Origin: Chiloscyllium plagiosum
Taxonomy: Eukaryota
Direction: 5' to 3'
Length of the DNA: 64,000 nt
NCBI RefSeq assembly: GCF_004010195.1
Contig: NC_057721.1
Location: forward strand, 41,805,964-41,869,963
Shown here: positions 14,701 to 60,472 of the stretch, one piece after another
How positions within the stretch are numbered: position 1 is the stretch's first letter
How the letters are laid out: each line of letters opens with the position of its first letter
The notes under the pieces: generated by a model
Databases searched by the model: none
The model's input: the letters and a program-made list of their open reading frames with translations, nothing else
Told to the model about the DNA's origin: nothing
Translations under genes and position numbers: made by a program

Positions 14701-17700
14701 ATAGGGCGAGGCTGAGTAGGCTGGAGCATCAGAGCTGAGGGGTGACCTTAGAGAGGTTTATAAAACCATGAGGTTTAGGGTGAGAGAGAAAAGATTTCAA
14801 AGGGACCTAAGGGAACAATTTTGACATAATGAGGGTGGTGCATGTAAGAAATGAGCTGACAGAGGAAGTGGTGGAGGTTGGTACAATGACAGCATTTAAA
14901 GACATTTGGATAGATACATGAATAGAAAAGGTTTGGAGGCTTATGGGCAGCAAGGTACATAGTTTGGGATTATGTTTGGCATGGACTGATTGGACCAAAG
15001 GGTCTGTTTCTATGCTGTATGACTCTAAAAGGCATCTGGATGTGCACATGAAGGGTTTGGAGGGATATGGGCCAAATGCTGGCAAATGGGACTGGATTAA
15101 TTTAGGATATCTGGTTGGCATGGACAGGTTGGACTGAAGGGTCTCTTTCCATGCTGTACAATTCTGACTGACTGTATGACCTCTTTTTTTTTTTTACTTG
15201 TTATTGGTTGCACTCTGATCATTTTGTTTTCATATCAGATAGTCTGTTTCACCTGCCTTCTAATTAATGGTTTAATTGCATTGAAGTTTATTTTTAAATG
15301 TCACATTGGTGCCCCATCTTTGGTGAAAACTAAAGTGTATTTGAATCATTTGAGGAATATTTGCTCCAATGTACACTATTACATCCAGCATATCTGTTCT
15401 ATCAAATAATAAAACAATGCTGGTGTCCTTTACCAAACACTCACTTGGCATTCATATCAATTCACTTTTAAACTTAATCACTAAATTGTCTCCAGTATTC
15501 AAAAAAATACACTCACTCATTTGTCCCCTTTTTCCTAATAGTTAATAGTTAATAGCTAAGCTTGTGTAGACCTAAGAGTGTTGTGGTCACACCATGTGGA
15601 GCGATCAAACTTTCTGGTTGGTAGCTGCCTGTGTCTCTACAACGCACTCAGGCAGTGCATTCTAGATCATGATCATTTACTATGTGGAAAAAGCTATTTT
15701 GTTGCTTTTGCCTATTACTTTAAATGTGTGCCCTATTGTTCTTAATCTTACTGTGAGTGGCAACAGTTTCTCCTTATCTATGCTATCCAGACCTCTCATT
15801 TTTAATTTGATATGCCTCCCCGTTCTCCTCTCAGCTTGCTCTTCTAAGCAGCGCACAGTGCTAGTTTCTCCAATCTATATTCATAACATGAAGTTTCTCA
15901 TCCTTGGCAGCATTCTCATAAATCTCTTTGTCCAATGCTCATACAGATTTCCTAAAGTATGGTGTTCAGAACTGGATGCAGTACTCCAGCAGAGGTCAAA
16001 CTGGTATCTTTTACAAGTTTAGTATAGCTTTCTTTCTCTATGCCTATGTATACTTTATTACCCATGCTCTCAACCTCTTCCTTAATGACTTGTTCACTCA
16101 GTTCCTGCACCTCCTTTTGAATTGTACCCTTTCATTTATTTGTCTCTCTATTTTTGTTCTTATAAAAATGCAACATCATTCATTTTTCTATATTGAACTG
16201 TTGTCTATTCCATCAACTTGTCTGTCTTTTCGAAGTTTTACACTTTCCTGATCTCATTTCACAATGTTTCCAAGTTTCAAATATTCTGCAAATTTTGATT
16301 TGTGACCTGTATGTCCATGTCATTTATATGTATCAGGAAATGCAAGGGCCCTGCAGATCTGCAGCACAGACCTTCTCCAGTCCAAAGAATATCTATTAAC
16401 TCCCACTTTGTGTCTTGGCACTCAGCCCATCTATCTCCATGTTAAAACTGACCTTTTTGTTCTCTGAGTTATCACTTTGCTCATAATTGTTGTGTGGCAC
16501 TCTAATCAAGTCCCTTTTATAGGTTCACTAACATCGCATCAACATCATTATCCTCATCAACACTGTTACATCTTCAAAACAAAAAGTCACATCATTTGTG
16601 TATGATTTCCTCTGAGGAAGTCCATACTGGTTTTCCTTTATTAACACTTTTCGGTGTGGTCATTCATTTTATTCGCAATTATTATTTGCAGAAGTTTCTG
16701 TACAGCTGACATTAGACTGTTTTGTAGTTTTAGGACTTCTCTTTACATCTTTGTTTGAATAAGGATGTGATACTTGCTGTTCTCCAATCCTCTGGTACCA
16801 CGCCTGAATCTAAGGAAAACTGAAAATCTATGACAAGTGCATCTGGACTTTGCACTTGCAATTCCCTCTGTACCCATGGATGTATCTCATCCAGTCTCGT
16901 TGATTTATCAGCTGTTAGTTCAGACAGCCCATCCAATATCTTTTCATTATCAAATGTAATTTCTTGTAGTGACTGAATTAACCCATTTTTCTCCATAGCC
17001 TGTGCAACATCATTTCCTTGGTAAAATTGAAAAGCAGTCATTAACTCTTTAACCATGCCCCACCTCTAGACATAAATTTTTAATCCTTAATTGGCACTGT
17101 GACTGTTTTATTATTTTATGACCCTTTTATTACTTATCTGCCGATTTGAATATTGTTGGATTTCCTTTTATGTTGGCTGCCATGTTCTTTTCATACACAC
17201 TGTTTACTGCTCTTTTAGAATCGTAGAATCCCTACAATGTGGAAACAGGCCCATTGGCCCAACAAGTCCACACTGACCTTCTGAAGAATAACCCACCTGG
17301 ATCCATTCTCCTACTCTATTACTCTACATTTAACCCTGACTAATGCACTGCATCTACACATTCCTGGAGGTGACCCACAGCAGTAGAATCTGATTGTTGG
17401 GAGTGCTGCTGCCCCTGATGGTGTTTCTGCAAACTGCAGGACGATGTGAACCTCCACCTGTACTCTAGGCAGGCGGACGGCCTCTCCCCGGTATGGACCC
17501 GCTGGTGCTTCAGCAGGTTGGAGGAATTGCTGAACCCCTTCCTGCACTCGGGGCAGGGGAAGGGCTTCTCCCTTGTCTGGACCCGCTGGTGCTTCAGCAG
17601 GGAGTAGGAATCGCTGAAGGCCTCCCCACGCTTGGAACAGCTGAAAGGTCTCTCCCCAGTGTGGGCGTACTGGTGGCAGTAGGAAGGAAGAATTGTTGAA

Positions 17701-20700
17701 TGCCTTCCCACATTTGAGGCAGGGGGAGGGCTTCTTGCCAGTATGGACCTGTCGGTGGTCCGGCAAGTGGGAGGAACGAGTGAAATCCTTCCCGCACTGA
17801 AGATAGCTGAAAGGCCTGTCAGCCGTGTGGACCTGCTGGTGCCTCCGCAGGGAGTGGGAATCGCAGAGGGTGTTTCTGCACTCGGGGCAGCTGAAGAGCC
17901 TCTAGCCAGTGTGACTGCACTGATGAGTCTCCAGGGCAGATGGGACACTGAAGCTGTTCCCGCAGTTGCCACACGTCTGCGGTTTCTCCACTGGGTAGGA
18001 TTCCTGGGGTTTTTCCATGGCCATAGCTTCAGCTGTGCACAACCGTTCTTTGAGTTTTCACCTTCCTTCTGGACCTTCAATAGTCAGCATGATCTCAGTT
18101 GTATTTTCTGCTTGTTGATTATTAGCACTTTTATTTTTTAAAGTGTCATCTTAATTACAGTGTCTTTTATCATCCAGGGACTGCTGAATTTGGCTTCCGT
18201 ACCTCCTTGTATGAGGAAAATACCTTGACTGTATACACATGATTTCAACCTTGAATTTTGCCCATTGTTCTCTGTAACATTTCCTGTTGATCTTTAGCTC
18301 CAATGTATTCAACTGAACTCTATTCTTCTCCCATTGAAATAAAAGGAAATTACTGATGCCGCAACAGATTTGAAATAACATCAGAGGCCAGTGTCTGCTA
18401 ACACTCGGAGTCATTTACAATTGTGCATGTAGAACAGCGGAGGGGGTGAGGATGGGAAGATCAGCACAGGCACAGGCAGGGAGATGATTGGGAGGGAGAG
18501 GGGACACCACCCCTGTCTCCTTCACCACCTTCTATCATCCTTCACATGTGTCCTGCCCTCACCTCTCACTTCTCTCCCTTATCACTCCCCACATCTGAGG
18601 GCCCTCGCATCAATCACCTCCCGCTGCCCCTACCCTGCAATCACTTTTGACTACCCCCGGCCCCCTCACCTGCACTTCGCCCACCAAAACTCTGCCCTCA
18701 TTCAGCTGCCCTCCTCTCCCACCCCACCGGCCCCTCTCCCCCACACCCAACCCCAGAACACTACTTTTAAATGTACTTTCTACAACTTGGCTTTCTGCTT
18801 CTCCAAGCTGTAAAACCTGCAATTACGCACTGCTGTGATTTATCTCCAGTTCTTTTGAAATGGGTGTTATTTCAGTCATTCTGCTATCCAGTAAGCTGAG
18901 GCATTGGAACTTTAACCATCTCGAGTTAGTCACAGCACTAATTAAGAAATAGTTTGAATAATGTGCGAGGACTCTCCTATCATTAATGAATGTGTTCTTC
19001 CATTTTCAATGTAGGAATCAAAGTTTAAAGAGACTGGAGTAATTACCCCAGAGGAGGTAAGTCTGAAGAATTTGTTTAACCAAGCTGTTTAGAAGAGGAA
19101 GCCCTTTCTCTCATTTTTATTTGAGTGGATGATCTTGACTGTAATAAGTGTTGATTCTAAGTAAAGAACAAGCTGAATCATGGACCACTTTGATTCAAGT
19201 GACTTTTGGTCAAAATTCCCAACCTGTGCTCAAGGTTATTATATATAATAGAACTTCCCTTCCTCAGTCCACATGCTGGCAACAAACTTGTTATCCTAAT
19301 TTTCAGCTAACTCTAAGCTTTGCTGTTTGACAGAATATTTAATGAAATCTTGAATTAAAAATATATTCTTTTGATACAGGTGTGATTATGAAAATATACC
19401 TGGAAAATCTGGTGAAAATCTGGACTATATATAACACGCACATACTAGAACACAAATGGTACCTGTTGACTGGAGGATAGCTAGTTATTTTAGTTAAAAA
19501 GAAAACAACCAGGAAACTTTAATCTGATTATTTTAGTGCCTCTTATTCCTGGTAATAAAACAGAGTGGAATCTTTTTCTCAAAGATGTAACCGATAAACA
19601 CACAGTATAAACACACTCAAAGTATAAAAGATTTCAATAGCACAGATATCAAAACTGAAAGTCATGCTTGACCAACCTTTTAAAATAATTTTGAAGGAGT
19701 AATAAAGTTGGTACATAACTATGATCTAGTTTGATTTTTCAAACGTCCTTGATAAGATGCTTTGCAGTTAATTCTTGATTAAGATCAGGACGTCTGGATT
19801 TAGACAAAGATAGAATAGATCCGCAAAATAGAAACACGATAGGAGTTCACAGTATTCACTCATGCAAAAGGTGTGAAGTGTCGTTGTACAAGGATTTGCA
19901 TAGATATCATATATTTTGTACTAATGATTTACATGAGAATTTTCCTCAATGTCTTGGACAACATCAAATCATAGTTACTGTGTTGAGATGAGGATTCATA
20001 ACATATTGTTTAGGAACTTGAGTTCTAAAGTGGAGGCAAATGACTTTTAAAAGATTGCAAGAAATCATGTTACTTCAGATGAATGAATAGTGAGCCAACT
20101 GTTAAGATAACTTAGGATGTTTACTGACTTAGGTTTTACAACTGAGAGAAAGAGAAATGAGTCCAGAAGCAGTTTCATTCAGAGAGAAGCAAGGTGCATT
20201 AGAAAGAAGTCGTCCTTCTCAGTAGAGATGCTGTTTATTGGCAGTAAATGCAATTAGGGCTAGGGAAAAAGTCCTGAGAGGCTTAGAGAGCCAGAAGTAA
20301 ACGATTGTGTATGTACCTTATTTATCTTATAGAGCTGCTGAAGATATGAGATTAAAGAACCCATATGGGCTGAGTTAACTGCTTATTTTAGAAGTCTTGG
20401 GAAAAGGCATTTTTTAAAAAGTGCATAAATTTAACAAAAATAAACTTTTCAGGATAAACACTCACTGAAGCTTAGGTGCCTAAGATTGTTGTGATTAAAA
20501 AGGTTGAATCATTTTAATATTTCTGATAAGAGTTTCAAAATAATAGGATAATATAACATAGTTTGACTATTTCTCTTTTGTGTAATAAACATCTTTTGTT
20601 TTTTAATTAAACATACATTGCAGCTTCTCATGAATATGTTCAGGATCTGACCTCCACAGTGAACATAAGTAAAAATTCAACTTATGTCACTTAAAATTAA

Positions 20701-35700: not shown

Positions 35701-38700
35701 ATAACACAGAAGTAGGTAGAAACTTAAGTTGTGAAGTGGACATAAAATGCCCACAAAAGATGTGTAGATAGTTATGTCCGTGTGGTAAATAGAAAATAAT
35801 GTGGGAAAATGTGAACTTGTCCATTTTGATAGGAAGATTTAAAAGAAAGCATTCACTAAATAGTGAGAAATTGTCACTGCATACTAGAACATTTAAATCT
35901 CTATGCATCTCAAAGGGCAAAACACTAGTATGGAGATGTACAGCAAGTAATTAGAAAAGTGAATTTGTATCGTTTATTGTGAAGGTCATTGAATACAAAA
36001 GTAGGAAGAATATCCTTCAATCTTACAATGCACTGGTGAGGTTACATCAGGAGTACTGTGTGCAGTATTTTTTCCTTTTAAGTTGGGAGAAGGTCTATTA
36101 AACTAATAACAAATAGGCAGCTCCACTGATGGGGATAGGTTAGACAAACCGGTCTTCCATTGGTTGGAGTTTAACAGTATGGGGGGATTTGATTGAAACA
36201 TAAGATACTGAAAGATCTTGACAGGGTAGATACAGACAGCAGGTTTTGGGAGAGTCTATAACTAGGGGTTACAGTTTAAAAATAAGACGCACTCCTTTAA
36301 AACAGTGAATTTTTCTTTAGTCTCTGGAACGCCTTTCCTGAAAAGGGTACGAAAGCAGAATCTATGAATGTTTTTCGGACAGAAGCAGATAAATGCTTGG
36401 TAAGCAGATGAGTGGAAGGTTATCAAAGCAGATGGGAATGTAGATTTGAGGTTATAAATAGATCCACTATCGGCAGCCAAATGACCACCTCCTGCCCCTT
36501 GTTCGTATGTTCATATCATTGCTAATCACCATCTAACACTCAAATAGATGATCTTATCGCTGGTCTGTGTGATTGCCAGGCAGCAAAATGTCTTGTGTTC
36601 GGATATTTTTCTTGTAAAGGAAGGTTAGAGTTTGCCCTAGCTTATCCCTAGTCATCGAGTCCTAGAGATGTACAGCATGTAAACCGACCCTTCGGTACAA
36701 CCTGTCCATGCAACCAAATATCCCAACCCAATCTAGTCCCACCTGCCAGCACCTGGCCCATATCCCTCTAAAGCCTTCCTATTCATGTACCCATCCAAAT
36801 GCCTCTTAAATGTTGCAATTGTACCAGCCTCCACCACATCCTCTGGCAGCTCATTCCATACACGTACCACCCTCTGCGTGAAAAGGTTGCCGCTTAGGTC
36901 TCTTTTATATCTTTCCTCCCTCACCCTAAACCTACACCCTCTAGTTCTTGACTCCCTGACCCCAGGGAAAAGACTTTGCCTATTTACCCTATCCATGCCC
37001 GTCATAATTTTGTAAACTTCTATAAGGTCACCCCCTCAGCCTCCGACGCTCCAGGGAAAACAGCCCCAGCCTGTTCAGCCTCTCCCTATAGCTCAAATCC
37101 TCCAACCCTGGCAACATCCTTGTAAATCTTTTCTGAACCCTTTCAAGTTTCACAACATCTTTCCGATAGGAAGGAGACCAGAATTGCACGCAGTATTCCA
37201 ACAGTGGCCTAACCAATGCCCTGTACCACCGCGACATGACCTCCCAACTCCTGTACTCAATACTCTGACCAATAAAGGAAAGCATACCAAATACCTTTTT
37301 CACTATCCTGCAACTCCACTTTCAAGGAGCTATGAACTTGCACTCCAAGGTCTCTGTTCAGGAACACTCCCTCGGACCTTACCGTTAAGTGTATAAGTCC
37401 TGCTAAGATTTGCTTTCCCAAAATGCAGCACCTCGCATTTATCTGAATTAAACTCCATCTGCCATTTCTCAGCCCATTGGCCCATCTGGTCCAGATCCTG
37501 TTGTAATCTGAGGTAACCCTCTTCACTGTTCAGTACACCTCCAATTTTGGTGTCATCTGCAAACTTATAAGAGTCTCATGCTCTACCGACTGAGCTAGCC
37601 GGGCCTCGCACTTGCTAAAGATAAATTAAATTACTTAGTGTGGAAACAGGCCCTTCAGCCCAACAAGAACACACCAACCCTCCGATGAGCAACCCACCCA
37701 GACCCATTCCCTTACATTTACCCCTTCACCTAACACTACGGGCAGTTTAGCATGGCCAATTCACCTATCCTGCACATTTTTGGACTGTGGGAGGAAACAG
37801 GAACACCCGGAGGAAACCCAGACACTGGGAGAATGTGCAAACTCCACACAGTTGCCTGAAGTGGGAATTGAACCCGGGGTCTCTGGCGCTGTGAAGCAGC
37901 AGTGTTAACCACTGTGCCACCAAGGACTGTTTTCTTTATTAGGGAATGACACGTGACTGTAAAGATTAGGATAATTGAGAAAGACAGTAAAGTTTAATTT
38001 AATTAAAATGCTACTATAGCAGTATTGCAATTTGGATTTGAATAAACAATCATTGAAATATGATATTCTTTTAAACTGTTTGCTCTAGGCAGCCCTGGAT
38101 ACGAGCAAGATAGAAGCGAGCAAGCCCAAAGCAGATGCTGTTGGAGAAGATGGAATTCTTCAGACGAGAACTTATGATCTATATATTACTTATGACAAGT
38201 ATTATCAGACACCCAGGCTTTGGTTGTTTGGTTATGATGAGGTAAACAGGTAGTGTCTTATCAATCATTGTTATGTAAAGGGATTAGTATTTTACAATTG
38301 TTTGTGAGCTTTATTTTCTTGAACATTATATAGTGTTTAATGGTTATATTCGAGAATGTGGTGCTGGAAAAGCACAGCAGGCCAGGCAGCATCCGAGGAG
38401 CAGGAGAAGCCTTCATCAGGGGCTTATGCCCGAAACGTCAATTCTCCTGCTCCTCGGATGCTGCCGAGCCTGCTGTGCTTTTCCAGCACCACACTCTCGA
38501 CTCTGATCTGCAGTCCACACTTTCTCCTAGTATAATGGTTATACCAAACTCTATTATTTTAATTATGATACAGATTTGTCATACGTGATTAATGTATGTA
38601 AAACCATAATCAACCGTTTGGCATGTTCCTATTTTCAGCAACGACACCCACTGACTGTAGAAGAGATGTATGAGGACATTAGCCAGGACCATGTCAAGAA

Positions 38701-49895: not shown

Positions 49896-50809
49896 CCACG
49901 ATAGTATTAAATTATTTATTAATAAAATGGAGTGCATTAAATGCAAAGGTAATTCATGAAGAAAAGTATTTGTCTAAATGTTGAGCATATAAAAATAGCA
50001 GTGAAATGATGAAAAAAAATTAAATTTTATTTTAATATTACTGCAAGTATGTGAACATTTAAGAGTAGAAAATTTGCACCTTCTACAGTTTGTCTCCCAT
50101 CCCTTGTCATTCTTTGACCCCAAGCTCATCATTTCCATAGAGTTCACCACCTCCTCCATTGACAATGTTCCCACTAAAACAGCTGACCACCCAAAGTCCG
50201 TCCCTCTCCGACCCACATATTTCTTAATATAACCAATAGTTAAGGTGAGAAAGGAAACTGTTGAAGGCTATTCATTGTCTAAATATGTAAAAGTATTACA
50301 GCTGGGAGACAGAACTTTTGAACTGGTATATTTTAACCCTCTGCATAAAGTCTCTTGGCTGAACCTTGTCCATTCTTTTTTTGCAAGTGCGCATTAGATC
50401 AAGGTTTTTCATTGAGGTCTAGTGGGTTTTCTCTTATCTTCCTAAATGCCCCTCTAGCTACCTCCATTGCCTCCGTCGCATCTCTCCTGTCCGTTTCCAG
50501 CCCCATCTTACCACATGTAATTTGCCAAACAGTGCGCCATTCAGCTATCCTCAAAGATCAGCATCCCCTGGAATTGCATCATCTGTAAAAGGCTGCTGTG
50601 CACTGAGATGAACATTGGCAGTCTGACATCCCACCTCACCGTTGCAGGCACATAATCAGCATAGCTGTCACTCCCCTATCACCCTCAACACTGTTTAACC
50701 ACTAGGCTCACACTTTACCTCTCTGGCAACATTCCATGTCAAAACCCTGTCCAGCTCATCTCTCCCTTATCCCCAAGTGCCTAGTGGAGATCTGCAGCAA
50801 TTCATTGAT

Positions 50810-53800
50810 TAGTAGGGAACCTCCCATACAGGCAGACAATGAGACAATCCCACACGAGGAAGAGTGTCCAGCCTGCAGGATCCTCTGAGTCGATTACTTT
50901 CCAGGCCCTGGTGAAATCTTGCGAGATGTTGGGGAAACAAATAGAAGAGAAGCTGGCTCCAATCTCTCTCATGCTGTAGAAGCATGAGCCACAGCTGGCA
51001 GACTTGGAGAAGAGGATGGATGAGGTGGAGCACAGGGTCACAGTGGTGGAAGCTGATGCCAGTTCATCCAAGGATAGGATCCAAGCCCTGGAGACGCAGG
51101 TCTGCAATTTGAGTAAGCAAGTGGATGATCTTGAGAACACGGGTAGGAGAAAAAACATTCGGATCATCAGTCTGCCTGAGGGTAAGGAAGGAGAGCGGCC
51201 TGCGGAATTTATTGAGAAATTCCTTGACTTGGAGGCTGGCATGAGAGGATTGAAGATAGAGAGGACGGAGATCGGATCTAGGTCAATGTCATCGTCCTTT
51301 CCTGGTGGGGTTCCATCACTATAGGCATAAGGACAGAATCATGGAAGCTTCCAGGATGCAGGGGAAGGATCCAAAGGTCCTAATTTACGAGGGCTTTAAG
51401 ATCATGTTCTTCCAGGACTTCTCAGCGGCGGTGATCCAGAAACGAAAATCTCATGACAGTGTCAAGAGAAGACTGAGAGAACTTGGGATTTGGTACTCTG
51501 AGGTATTCGCCGGTACTCCGATCCACCCTAGATGGTGGGATGGTTAGATGCCTACCTATGGGCAGTTTGGGATGGGTAATTGCCCCCTCTGGGCAGGGGG
51601 TGTGCTCCTCTACTCAGCGCCATTTTGTTTTATATGTTGGTTTGTTTTTTTTTTTGGTTTTTGTTATTTTTAATTTTTAATAGCTTTGTAGGTTTGTTTA
51701 ATGTAGCGGTCTTAGTTTCTGTGTTCGGTGGATCATGTGACACTAAGACTCAGTGATTTGTGGTTCGAGTTCCTCCTGTCTGGAATTTAAATGTTACTGC
51801 ATAAGATTATGGCTAATGACTTGATTAAATGGTGTACCTGGAACATCAGGGGAAGTCACTCATCAATTAAGAGGAAGAAGGTACTCTTGAGTCTTAGAAG
51901 GAAGAAGGTGGATATTGCTTTGTTACAGGAGACACACTTCGATGACAAGGAGCATCTGAAATTACAGCAGAATAACTTTGACCGAGTTTATTTTTTCATC
52001 ATTTAATACCAGAAGTAGGGGAGTGGCTATATTGGTTCGGAAGAATCTCCCATATAAGTTCCTAGAGTGTGTTAAAGACACACATGGGAGGTTTGTAATT
52101 CTTAAAGCTTTGATAATTGGAAAGAATATGGTGTTTTAAATATTTATTGCCCTCCAGCTCATCCCCTTAAGTTTTTGGTAGATGTGTTTTCTAAACTAAT
52201 AAGTCTCGAGTTCCGACGCATCATTATAGGGGGAGATTTTAACTGTCTCGTGGATCCCACAGTAGACAGATTGCTCAAAGGCGCCCCAGTACCCTCTGTA
52301 CAAACTAAATGATTAGTGGATCTATGTGTGGAGTTAGGGTTGGTGAACGTCTGGAGGCATCTTCATCCTACATTGCAGGAATGATTTGGAGATGCCTGTG
52401 TTGGACTGGGGTGTACAAAGTTAAAAATCACACAACACCAGGTTATAGTCCAACAGGTTTAATTGGAAGCACAGTAGCTTTCAGAGCATCGCTCCTTCAT
52501 CAGGTGTTAGTCATCAGGGATTTTGTTTTTCTCTAATCCGCACAGATGTCACACTCTGATTGATTTTTTTTTTACTCCCGTGGCAACTCTGGACTTAATG
52601 GCATCTTGTTCGATTGGTAATATGACAATGTCCGATCATGCTCCAGTGTACCTGTTACTTAAGATTAAGCACGCTATAGTGGGACCATGGCACTGGTGAA
52701 TGGATCCCTTTATCCTTAAGGCTAATAGGTGAGTGGAGTATTTCTCAAGGGAATTTTGGGCGTTCTGAGGCATTAACTCGGGCTCGGTTAGTAGTCCATA
52801 CATCCTTTGGGAAACTGCCAAAGCCTATATCGGGGTGTAGTTATTTCCTACTCTGCCAGTAGGAAGCGGCAGAAGGGTGAGCAGCAACGTCTCCTCGAGG
52901 CACGGTTGAAGGCAGCCAAGAAGGCTTTCTCTGACAGGCCATTGATGGTCAAGCTACAGGGGATTATAGCACTATGGTCTGCATTGAATTCCGTTCTCAC
53001 GCAGACAGCAAAGAAAGAACTTGCTTTTGCAAAACAAAGATGATATGAGCATGGTGACAAACTAGGTAAGTACCTAGCATATCTCGCCAGGAAGAGAAGT
53101 GCCCTACAAACTATTACAGTGATTAGGGAAGAGTCTGGGAACCTAACATGTGACTCTAAAAAGATTAATGTGGCATTCCAGAGATTTTACTCTAACGTAT
53201 ACCAATCTGAGGGTTGTTAGGAAGCGTGTGTCAAAATGGAATATTTTTTCAAGAATCTGAAGCTCCTGGACGTGACCCCCGAACAAGAAACCTTTCTTAA
53301 TGCCCCCTTATCAGAGCAAGAAGTGCAGAAAGCTGTGAGGCAGCTTCAGAGTGGACAGGTGCCTGGTCCTGACAGACCTCCCAGCAATTCCTATAAGGAA
53401 TTTATAAGTATACCGTCAGACCTGATGCTAAAGATGTTTAATGATTCACACAGTCATGATTGTCTCCTACCAATCTCTGAGAGAGGCCAATATTTCACTT
53501 ATTTTTAAAAAAGGGAAGGTCCTGGAGGACTGTACTTCACACAGGACCATCTCGCTCTTAAATGTGGACTTTAAAATCCTCTCCTAAAGACACTCGTGTT
53601 TAGACTGGAGATTGTGTTACCTATTATTAAAGAGGGCTTCATAAAGAGCCGCAAATCCTCCAATAACATTAGGAGGCTGCTTAATGTAATTCAAGCATGC
53701 TAACAGCAGTCAATACAGGGATTGGTGATTTCTCTAGATGCAGAGAAGGCATTTGACCAAGTTGAGTGGCCGTACCTTTTCTATACTTTGGAGTGATTTG

Positions 53801-56005
53801 GCTTGGGTGAAGTCTTTATAGGATGGGGAAAGGTTCTCTCCAGTGGCCCTCTTGCTGCGGTCATCACCAGTGGGGTACGATCAAGCAATTTTAACATTTT
53901 CAGGGGCAGCCGGCAGGGCTGTCCCCTCTCCCCACTGCTTTTTACTTTGGTGATTGAACCATTGGCGGAGGCCATTCATGGGGATCCCAATATACCAGCT
54001 TCAGAAATGGGGTCAAAATTACATAAGATTTCATTGTATGTGGATGATGTCCTCATTTTTTTGTCAAATTCCAGCAGTTTCAGTGCCTTGTCTGATGGGG
54101 TACAAGATTAATTTTGCAAAATCAGAGGCTATGCCTGTGGATGGTCTTACAAAGGTGCTAGGTCTTGAGGGTGAATATCGATACCCACTCAGGTGGTCAC
54201 GGGGTCAGGGGGGGGGAGGTTTTGTGTATTTGGGCATATTCATTATGCCAGTTCTGGATCAGTTGTTCAAAGCCAATTTTGTTCAATTATTTGACAAAAT
54301 CGAGCAAGACCTTCAAAGATGGGAGGCGCTTCTGTCTCATGGTTGGATCAGATAGCAATTACTAAGATGAATATACTCCCCTGTTTGCTCTATCCTAAAC
54401 GGATATTCCCACTGATTTTCAATAAGCAAACATCCAGGAGGCCGAATGGCTGGTTCAGCTCCTTTATTTGGCATCGTAAGCAGCCCCTCGTTAAATTAGC
54501 TAAACTGCTATTGCCTCACAGATTGGGGGGAGTGGATCTTCCGGACATTAAAAACTACGAACTAAGCTCACTTTTTTGTTTTATGTGGGCGATTGGGTTT
54601 GTGGGGATTGTCATTCAATATGGCTAGATATCAAAGCCTCCCACGCAAGATACCCCCTTACCAGTTTGCTGTTTTAGGACAAAATGAGGGCAGTTAGGGA
54701 ATATTACCATAACCCAATCGTCATCAATGCTGTTAAAGCATGGAAGGCAATTCAGTAGAGGGAAGGCAATATTGGCAAAACATCGTTTTTTACGCCTTTA
54801 GTGGGTATGTCAGGTTTTCAACCAGGGATGACAGATTCAAGATTTAAACATTGGGCAGCCAGGGGTGTGTCTTGCATAGGCAATTTATTTGAGGGAGACT
54901 TAATGATGTTCTTCGATCAGTTAGTACCGAAATACGAGCTGTCTAATGGATCTCTTTCGTTTTTTTTCCAAATTAGGGATTTTATTTAAAAAAAAGATTA
55001 CATTTTTGACCCCTAAGAATCCGGCATAGAAAGCAGGGTGCTCAATGCTAAGAGTGCACTTTCTGTCAGCACTTAATATCATCAACTGGGGAGTGGCCCC
55101 TCAGATGAATTCGATCGACTCTGCAGGGTGTGGGAGAGAGCTAGGCATTGAGGTCTCCTCAGAGGCATGGGACGATATTTGGAAAAATGCAGGAAGATAT
55201 CAATTTGCAATAGGACCCATGCTTTACAGTTGAAAATTCTCCACAGGGTCCACTTGGCTCTGGACCGTTTGTCAAAATTTAAACCAGGGATATCTTCAGC
55301 ATCTTCCCAAGTGCAAGGTCTGCACGGGCACTCTTACCCATTGTCTCTGGTCTTGTTGTAGGCTTCAAACATACTGGAGTGCTGTGGCAGGTGCAATGGA
55401 GAGGATTTTGGGTATATGGATGGAGAAGGGCCCTATCTCTCTCCTTCTGGACCTGTCCACTGTATTTCCTGCAGACATCCATAAGAAAAAACTTTTCTGT
55501 ATCCTCACTTTCTGTGCAAAAAAGAATATCTTGCTAGGTTGGGTGTCCAAAAACCCCCCGGGCCTGTTGGGTCGGTGGAAGATTGTTATTGAGCATATTC
55601 CCCTGGATTTTCTCACAAATATGATCCACCGCAAATCTGAGAATTTTTATAAGACATGGTAGCCCTTTTTGGAATACCTTGACATTGATGTATCTGCCGC
55701 ACTAATAAGGGCTTTTATACAGCCATAACAATTGTGTTTTACAAGTCCAATGTCTGGGGAGGAGAAACTGTGAACATATGAGTGCCTTGTTTGGCTGAGC
55801 TGAGTTATTACTATTTATTAGTTTGTTGTTAGTTATTTAATTAACTAGCGAGTTTGTTTTTTTTGTTCTATATTTTTCTATATATGTTCATATGTTTGTA
55901 CAGGAGGGTGGGTTGGGTTTTTTTGTACTGTTTTGTTATATTGTTTTGTATTTGTTATAATGTTAAAAAATCTAATTTTTCAATTAAAATATATTAAGAA
56001 AAATA
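50810..56005 (+). mobile_element. Near full-length but inactivated L1-clade LINE (ORF1, APE endonuclease, RT, C-terminal Cys region)
   Basis: ORF1 DDLENTGRRKNIRIISLPEGKE; ORF2 from 51809 WNIRG..LLQETH, GSRQGCPLSPLLF..SLYVDDVL; many stops and frameshifts; T-rich 3' UTR and A-rich end. Confidence 0.9.
52380..52512 (-). mobile_element. Third short element family with hammerhead-like core, inserted in the L1 endonuclease region
   Basis: Reverse complement of 52475-52503: CTGATGA-A-GGAGC-GAT-GCTCT-GAAA-GCTA; interrupts L1 ORF2. Confidence 0.65.
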
Positions 56006-59010: not shown

Positions 59011-60472
59011 TGCTGAAGTCTCCATGTCGTTCTGCACATGTGTCAATGTCAGTGCTGAAGTTTCTGTGTCGTTCTGCATGTGTGTCGATGTCACTGCTGC
59101 AGTTTCCGTGTCGTTCTGCACGTGTGTAGATGTCACTGCTGAAGTTTCCGTGTCGGACCGCACTTGTGTTGATGTCAGTGCTGACGTTTTGTGTCGTTTT
59201 GCATGTGTGTCGATGTCAGTGCTGAAGTTTCCGTGTTGTTCTGCACGTGTGTCGATGTCAGTGCTGAAGTTTCCGTGTCGGACCGCACGTGTGTCGATGT
59301 CAGTGCTGAAGTTTCCGTGTTGTTCTGCACGTGTGTCGATGTCAGTGCTGAAGTTTCCGTGTCGGACCGCACGTGTGTTGATGTCAGTGCTGAAGTTTCC
59401 GTGTCATTTTGCATGTGTGTCGATGTCAGTGCTGAAGTTTCCGTGTCGTTTTGCATGTGTGTCGATTTCAGTGCTGAAGTTTCCGTGTCGTTCTGCACGT
59501 GTGTCGATGTCAGTGCTGAAGTTTCTGTGTCGGTCCGTACGTGTGTCGATGTCAGTGCTGAAGTTTTGGTGTCGTTCTGCATGTGTGTCGATGTCAGTGC
59601 TGAAGTTTCCGTGTTGTTCTGCACGTGTGTCGAAGTCAGTGCTGAAGTTTTCGTGTCGTTCTGCACGTGTTTGTCCATGTCAGTGCTGACGTTTCCGTGT
59701 CGTTCCACGCGTGTGTCCATGTCAGTGCTGAAGTGTATGTGTCGTTCTGCACGTGTGTCGATGTCAGGGCTGAACTTTCTGTGCCATTCTGCATGTGTGT
59801 CCATGTCAGTGCTGAAGTTTCCATGTCGTTCCGCACATGTGTCCGTGTCAGTGCTGAATTTTGTGTGTCGTTCCGCACGTGTGTCGATGTCAGTGCTGAA
59901 GTTTCTGTGTCGTTCTGCACGTGTGCCGATGTCAGTGCTGAAGTTTGTGTGCCGTTCTGCACCTGTGTCCATGTCATTGCTGAAGTTTCCGTGTCGCTCT
60001 GTTCGTGTGTAGATGCCGCTGCTGAAGTTTCTGTGTCATTCTGCACGTGTGTCAATGACAGTGCTGAAGGTTCTGTGTCGTCCTGCACGTGTGTCGATGA
60101 CAGTGCTGAAGTTTCCGTGTCGTTTTGCACATGTATCGATGTCAGTGCTGATGTTTCTGTGTTGTTCTGCATGTGTGTAGATGTCAGTGCTGAAGTTTCC
60201 ATGCGGTTCTGCACATGTGTAGATGTCAGTGCTGAAGTTTCCGTGCGGTTCTGCATGTGTGTCGATGTCAGTGCTGGAGTTTCTGTGCCGTTCCACACGT
60301 GTATCAATGACAGTGCTGAAGTTTCCGTGTCATTCTGCACATGTGTGTCAATGTCAGTGCTGAGGTTTCCGTGTCGTTGTGCATACTGTGTAGATGTCAG
60401 TGCTGAGGTTTCCGTGTCGTTCTGCACGTGTGTAGATATCAGTGCTGAAGTTTCCGTGTCGTTCTGCATGAG
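59011..60472. repeat. 42-bp tandem repeat (minisatellite), about 35 visible copies, running into the gap
   Basis: Unit tgtcagtgctgaagtttccgtgtcgttctgcacgtgtgtcga; 14-aa periodicity in the ORF track. Confidence 0.95.

Follow-up and report, generated by a model that had tools for sequence, protein, structure and literature searches.

A dead zinc-finger pseudogene ending at a SINE tail in Chiloscyllium plagiosum, and the probable tail-driven retroposition of its gene family

In a 64,000-nucleotide stretch of the Chiloscyllium plagiosum genome (C12:41.81-41.87 Mb; hereafter the window), a unit of 830 bp on the minus strand, extending from 18046 to 17216, joins a C2H2 zinc-finger (ZNF) coding sequence to the 3' part of a short interspersed element (SINE). 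The unit lies within the remnant of a CR1-type long interspersed element (LINE). An earlier note on this DNA had proposed that it is a cassette that could be copied by the reverse transcriptase (RT) of a LINE. We compared the unit with related loci in the whole genome (3.56 Gb). Its parts are as follows (UTR, untranslated region):

18019..18046, minus strand: remnant of the 5' UTR in exon 2 of the parent gene, 28 nt, 5'-truncated, recognized by comparison with the parents
17359..18018, minus strand: dead C2H2-ZNF coding sequence with seven finger repeats and the C-terminal tail of the family, from reading frames and Pfam
17359..17366, minus strand: deletion junction, where the region of the ZNF stop and the middle of the SINE overlap by 8 nt (one mismatch)
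17216..17366, minus strand: 3' part of a UTR-resident SINE, with G at 17351, a rare state characteristic of the ZNF-linked copy
17236..17275, minus strand: predicted tail hairpin, presumably the recognition site of the RT (fold prediction, weak statistics)
17216..17230, minus strand: terminal octamer-type repeats, GATTCTAC-GATTCTA, presumably the priming site, without poly(A)

The coding sequence begins with an ATG at 18018, with a second in-frame ATG at 18024. Five fingers were found by motif (at 17973, 17889, 17805, 17639 and 17555), two more were read by eye (a broken fourth near 17721 and a degenerate seventh near 17471), and the last ZNF frame gave a Pfam zf-C2H2 match. The leader, start codon and about seven fingers described in the earlier note were thus confirmed on the minus strand, as was its view of a dead copy, since the frames are broken by a TAG at 17904 and by a change of frame in finger 4 near 17675. 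The (gattcta)-type tail that it saw at the end of the unit was also found, at 17230-17216. The window ZNF is 74-75% identical to two intact genes of the family cluster, L002 and L096. The SINE is putatively of the HE1 type.

The members of the family to which the unit belongs lie clustered, on C44 as well as on unplaced contigs. In four parent genes, the 5' UTR is split by a GT-AG intron (3.4-6.0 kb) that separates exon 1 from a single large exon 2; upstream of the 28 nt retained in the window, the parents carry ~380 nt more of exon 2, and then exon 1. Several parents have intact open reading frames (ORFs), e.g., of 539 aa with 18 fingers and of 376 aa with 11 fingers, both with a full SINE. 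Part of the family carries one such full SINE, on the same strand, in the 3' UTR ~100 nt after the stop codon. As the SINE starts at the identical position in all bearers, it was inserted once and spread by DNA duplication. Moreover, the DNA that follows the SINE tail in the bearers directly follows the UTR in SINE-less paralogues, which thus represent the empty site. The head of the SINE is tRNA-like by eye only: ARAGORN found 0 genes in six loci, an Rfam scan of parent L142 gave no tRNA family, and nothing in the tRNA and Rfam scans exceeded the gathering scores. Reads and contigs aligned to L142 revealed no exon junction or transcript end, the alignment being swamped by repeats. Other repeats also occur in the UTRs of cluster genes. 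In L096 (2270-2470; C44:10.20M), an intact 7-finger gene, the UTR contains the 3' end of a same-strand CR1 and not the SINE. In the cluster genes (region 2870-2990 of L142; C44 ~15.225 Mb), ~75 nt of the exon 2 5' UTR are a high-copy repeat in sense orientation to the ZNF, which may resemble the hammerhead-ribozyme end of Penelope-like elements; the Rfam scan of L142 gave no hammerhead match.

Queries for the genome searches were taken from the UTR, the leader, the exons, the downstream DNA and SINE variants, at most 40 candidates being scored per DNA search, so that the counts given here are lower bounds. At least 30 loci derived from the family were found on large contigs other than C44, and 22 of the 30 end at the SINE tail. 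These 22 copies lie on 17 large contigs, range in length from 427 to 3554 bp and have variable 5' ends, and no pair of them shares the flanks adjacent to the cassette. The dispersed copies with variable 5' truncation and unique flanks that the earlier note had suggested looking for exist, and all of them end at the tail. The DNA that lies behind the SINE in the parents was recognizable in 7/7 cluster genes (score 31-80) but not in the dispersed copies (score 8-16 in 22/22). A query taken from behind the SINE gave 22 matches, four of them on other large contigs, and none was an intronless poly(A) copy.

The copy in the window is too short to reach the position of the parental intron, but four other tail-ending copies do, and in three of these the junction of exon 1 with exon 2 is exact. 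Those at C9:71.98M and C29:49.03M retain 13 nt of exon 1, and that at C7:55.98M retains the whole matching exon 1, starting where the exon-1 match begins, without parental upstream DNA. The exact loss of the intron in three copies shows that an RNA intermediate was involved. Together with dispersal, the lack of parental flanks and variable 5' truncation, it characterizes these copies as processed pseudogenes, whereas the marks of the L1-type class, a 3' poly(A) remnant and a clear target-site duplication (TSD), are missing. Two independent spliced copies (L073:638 and L256:564) are 5'-truncated alike, with the last 13 nt of exon 1 left, as if there were either a second transcription start or a stop of the RT at this point. 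If the dispersed copies had moved as DNA, by segmental duplication, SINE-mediated recombination or gene conversion, the end of the SINE would mark a breakpoint. DNA-level movement does occur in the family, since entire genes lie on C9:51.0M and C8 together with their intron and downstream flank, and the retention of intron by a copy on C33 and the weakness of TSDs would also fit it. We consider it very improbable as an account of the dispersed copies. It leaves the three exact exon junctions unexplained, and is refuted for those spliced copies; additionally, all 22 copies end at the tail between flanks that are unique on both sides, and their 5' ends are scattered.

In the 21 copies that contain coding sequence, no ORF is intact, and the 22nd consists of UTR and SINE only. 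Thus, all 22 copies are dead, and none of them qualifies as a functional retrogene. The route for amplifying intronless ZNF genes that had been suggested for this locus has produced pseudogene copies, but no intact gene among them. At C2:8.06M (L135:2102-3328), in the one case of this kind, a SINE head (1-123) is followed by the ZNF and a full UTR SINE, a composite that could in principle be transcribed by RNA polymerase III (Pol III). At C4:19.54M (L149:2495-3410, minus strand), a SINE-less, 5'-truncated ZNF piece passes into parental downstream DNA and then into the 3' end of a same-strand CR1; this copy was possibly primed from a second tail donor.

As expected of a tail-primed insertion, the unit ends in a predicted hairpin, although one of weak stability, followed by short terminal repeats. 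The same hairpin recurred in consensus folds, with no real covariation, in alignments in which 2/18 rows of one and 1/16 of the other were on the wrong strand or misplaced. Related tails, 77-84% alike (in one case 47/61 bases), were found at the 3' ends of CR1 elements in the same genome. In the window itself, positions 36733-37035 (minus strand) hold the C-terminus of a CR1 ORF2 with a 3' tail related to that of the SINE. In the literature, the 3' structure of CR1 is described as a hairpin followed by an ATTCTRTG repeat (PMC8665684), the 3' tail of an eel LINE as the sole cis element needed to move a foreign RNA in trans, with initiation by the RT at the terminal repeat (PMC1636434), and the HE1 tail as shared with HER1 in sharks (PMC3747384).

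No AATAAA or ATTAAA was found between the stop codon and the tail in 6/6 parents, and for this reason priming is likely to have occurred internally, within a longer parent transcript. The longest run of A at the 3' end was ≤5 in 22/22 dispersed copies. Thus, we regard it as extremely improbable that the copies are ordinary processed pseudogenes of the L1 or Tx1 type, derived from transcripts that ended by chance at the SINE. The richness of cartilaginous fishes in retrocopies, which a recent survey links to CR1 or Tx1 content (bioRxiv 10.64898/2026.06.26.734816), would agree with such an origin, but the lack of poly(A), of long TSDs and of polyadenylation signals would not, and the ends of the copies resemble those of free SINEs. 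A decayed L1-like element, with ORF1- and ORF2-like frames read by eye, lies at 50800-55660 of the window (plus strand), indicating that L1-clade elements also existed in this genome.

Taken together, these results make it very probable that the 830-bp unit is a dead, 5'-truncated processed pseudogene of the clustered C2H2-ZNF family and, as part of the same claim, that this family, with at least 22 copies, was retroposed by virtue of the SINE tail in its 3' UTR by a CR1-type RT. The proposal that a ZNF transcript with a SINE tail was copied by a LINE RT is in agreement with the ends at the tail, the 5' truncation, the unique flanks and the three exact intron losses, whereas the RT itself is one that we infer.

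The SINE travelled with the gene, as the dispersed copies carry the SINE variant of the cluster. At a column that was not used for selection, the diagnostic base A was present in 10/12 cluster SINEs and 14/16 dispersed copies, and in 1/30 free SINEs (Fisher test, 7e-9), and two more unselected columns agreed (11/16 and 8/16). In a tree of 82 rows (without the copies on C14, C26 and C29, and after removal of 47 SINE-less rows that were nearly identical or secondary), the 19 dispersed rows did not cluster (16 changes needed; 126/500 shuffles as low), and well-supported branches forced at least five origins for them. Their end branches measure 0.09-0.22, and the copies are old. This scatter points to repeated retroposition from several parents. 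A single self-propagating master element, resembling SVA_F1, was rejected, as the dispersed rows do not form one clade.

The direct fusion of ZNF to SINE, with a stop codon inside the SINE, is private to the copy in the window and arose through a microhomology deletion of ~320 nt. When the best 40 of 1198 candidates were compared, the exact junction was seen in the window alone. As compared with sibling copies, it lacks 317-330 nt between two similar 8-mers, and with them the true stop codon, the 3' UTR and the 5' half of the SINE. The last ZNF frame therefore runs on into the SINE, to a stop at 17342-17340. The stop inside the SINE was read correctly in the earlier note, but it results from the deletion, and the parents have their own stop, 3' UTR and full SINE. 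The many dispersed copies of the same junction that it had named as possible support were not found among these 40 candidates, and the junction was rejected as a repeated cassette. A unique junction had been named there as grounds for dismissing the idea; the junction is unique, yet the mechanism is not refuted by that, since the fusion is a private deletion and the parents carry the undeleted series of ZNF, UTR and SINE. Cryptic splicing was rejected as the cause of the deletion, there being no GT or GC donor at the break.

The uniqueness of the junction and its microhomology would also fit a different origin of the window copy alone, as a chimera formed when the RT switched at the 8 nt from the RNA of a free SINE to a SINE-less ZNF mRNA. 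Moreover, BLAST gives L002 and L096, both SINE-less, as the genes closest to the ZNF part, a short tree places this part with the SINE-less clade, and the best individual match of the SINE part is a free SINE (90%). The state of the SINE, however, speaks for a UTR-linked source. The G found in the window is present in 19/25 UTR-linked SINEs; genome-wide, the G-type pattern has 22 exact matches, 13 of them ZNF-linked, and the T-type pattern has 3,536 (0/30 of those first sampled ZNF-linked), although the two patterns are not perfectly symmetrical. The G state, with only 22 of 3,558 exact-pattern matches, thus makes descent from a SINE-bearing parent, with a deletion, more likely than a switch of template from a free SINE. 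As, in addition, 21 siblings carry a ready-made ZNF-UTR-SINE template, and those on C11, C14 and C29 have internal deletions that spare the tail, we consider a chimeric origin quite unlikely, and a deleted retrocopy remains our preferred reading of the unit.

The insertion interrupted an older element, of which two parts are left:

18047..18246, minus strand: host CR1-type LINE remnant upstream of the insertion, with a 63% match to the CR1 homologue L178 up to 18048
16676..17215, minus strand: host CR1-type LINE remnant downstream of the insertion, with 63-82% matches to seven CR1 homologues (L174-L180)

A Pfam scan of the downstream CR1 frame gave no match, but L178 covers both flanks without a gap, upstream to 18048 and downstream from 17214, which bears out the proposed resumption of an older CR1 on either side of the unit. 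The 5-bp TSD tcttt fared differently. The repeat is present at both ends of the unit, but the empty sites that best fit the seven homologues remove 0-4 bases (two in 3/7, one in 2/7, in one case tied with three), and a duplication of five bases fits none of them.

Several observations weigh against tail-driven retroposition of the family. The stability of the tail hairpin is not significant (z -1.58; 16/200 shuffles equally stable), and the closest CR1 tails seen are just 77-84% alike, with no exact or active partner LINE among them. One of the four unselected diagnostic columns sides with the free SINEs, and a 170-nt tree groups the window with the SINE-less clade and one full-SINE copy (98/92). 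The longest exact flanking repeats of the dispersed copies, 2-6 nt, barely exceed chance (mean 3.6 vs 3.2 in 20 copies, p ~0.05, in windows chosen post hoc), and wide windows gave no TSD excess in these copies; since free SINEs are also at chance (2.93 vs 2.97, n=30), the absence of TSDs is compatible with this machinery. The two richest searches used queries containing the SINE head. In a control with the UTR of the SINE-less subfamily, 0/40 of the matches listed lay outside C44 or the unplaced contigs, but this control was crowded by close paralogues (35/40 at ≥86%) and is supportive, not decisive. The tail-ending copy on C33 starts inside the intron and keeps 1 kb of it, as if its template had been unspliced. 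Finally, the tail is not the end point of 8/30 dispersed loci, which are whole genes or gap-bounded pieces: intron-bearing whole genes on C9:51.0M (L186) and C8:84.2M (L181), intron-bearing 5' pieces on C24, C16 and C34 (L138-L140), one of them gap-bounded, a gap-rich cluster-like piece on C50 (L187), a downstream fragment in a tandem array on C28, and the C4:19.5M copy. Some gap-bounded pieces outside C44 may be misplaced cluster contigs. On C28:7.02M (L188:3427-5208), the segment found downstream in the parents occurs two times within a 670-bp unit of an array of 21-22-bp tandem repeats.

A probable course of events can be proposed. One sense SINE was inserted ~100 nt past the stop codon of an ancestral cluster gene, as the shared junction, the diagnostic bases and the empty site of the paralogues show, and ordinary DNA duplication carried it through part of the C44 cluster, as is evident from shared introns and flanks. 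Transcripts then served as templates, the RNA step being demonstrated by exact intron loss, and the tree suggests that they came from several parents. A CR1-type RT would grip the SINE tail on the ZNF RNA and copy this RNA into new sites, starting inside the transcript at the tail repeats and not at poly(A); the end point of the copies is observed, and the enzyme and its internal priming are presumed. Copying usually halted early, as the variable 5' ends show. The copy in the window lost its ~320 nt at the microhomology, during or after insertion, and decayed.

Several known systems resemble this one. In 5' transduction by SVA (SVA_F1/MAST2), a non-autonomous element that is transcribed from a promoter of the host upstream of it likewise takes exon sequence of the host to new sites (PMC12593883). 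However, SVA relies on poly(A)-primed L1, whereas the ZNF copies end at a LINE-type tail without poly(A), and their cargo is a whole spliced coding mRNA from many parents, in contrast to the one master of SVA_F1/MAST2. HE1/HER1 (PMC3747384), UnaSINE/UnaL2 (PMC1636434) and CR1 (PMC8665684) share with the ZNF copies a hairpin with terminal repeats and an end in these repeats, and stringent SINE/LINE pairs also share 5' truncation and little or no TSD; unlike such pairs, the ZNF family uses the tail from inside a host transcript of RNA polymerase II. L1-type processed pseudogenes are similar in intron loss, 5' truncation, dispersal and decay, but differ in having poly(A), clear TSDs and a 3' end not set by an internal SINE tail (PMC5470649). 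The nearest natural case found in the literature is the 5' extension of SINEU-2A_Crp in crocodilians, where the sequence attached to SINE copies stems from a multicopy family of zinc-finger genes that had received a SINE insertion (PMC4494074). There, 31 nt of intron are carried, ascribed to template switch or recombination, as opposed to spliced mRNA of up to 1.6 kb, including the coding region, in the ZNF copies. A search of the openly accessible literature brought up no account of shark ZNF retrocopies primed by a SINE tail (for general background, see PMC13343379 and PMC8535693).

That retrogenes are scarce among birds and other CR1-rich genomes is usually explained by the insistence of the RT on its own 3' tail, and this specificity is described as a barrier that limits hitchhiking by cellular RNAs (PMC5470649, PMC3747384). 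The ZNF family is the exception that this rule predicts. Nature has here provided a gain-of-function test along with its control: the tail-bearing paralogues gave rise to 22 or more retrocopies, against none seen for those tail-less paralogues that were sampled. The signature to look for, a retrocopy that ends at a SINE tail without poly(A), would be missed by retrocopy pipelines based on poly(A). The evolutionary yield seems to be nil, all copies being dead. We find it rather doubtful, and put forward only tentatively, that, where CR1 dominates a genome, a sense SINE in the 3' UTR generally enables a gene to be retroposed, that most shark retrocopies come from tail-bearing mRNAs, and that this route sometimes seeded living intronless ZNF genes or new clusters. 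If true, a LINE amplifies a zinc-finger family that may help to silence that very LINE.

Elsewhere in the window, a 42-bp tandem repeat of ~35 copies adjoins an N gap at 59011-60468.

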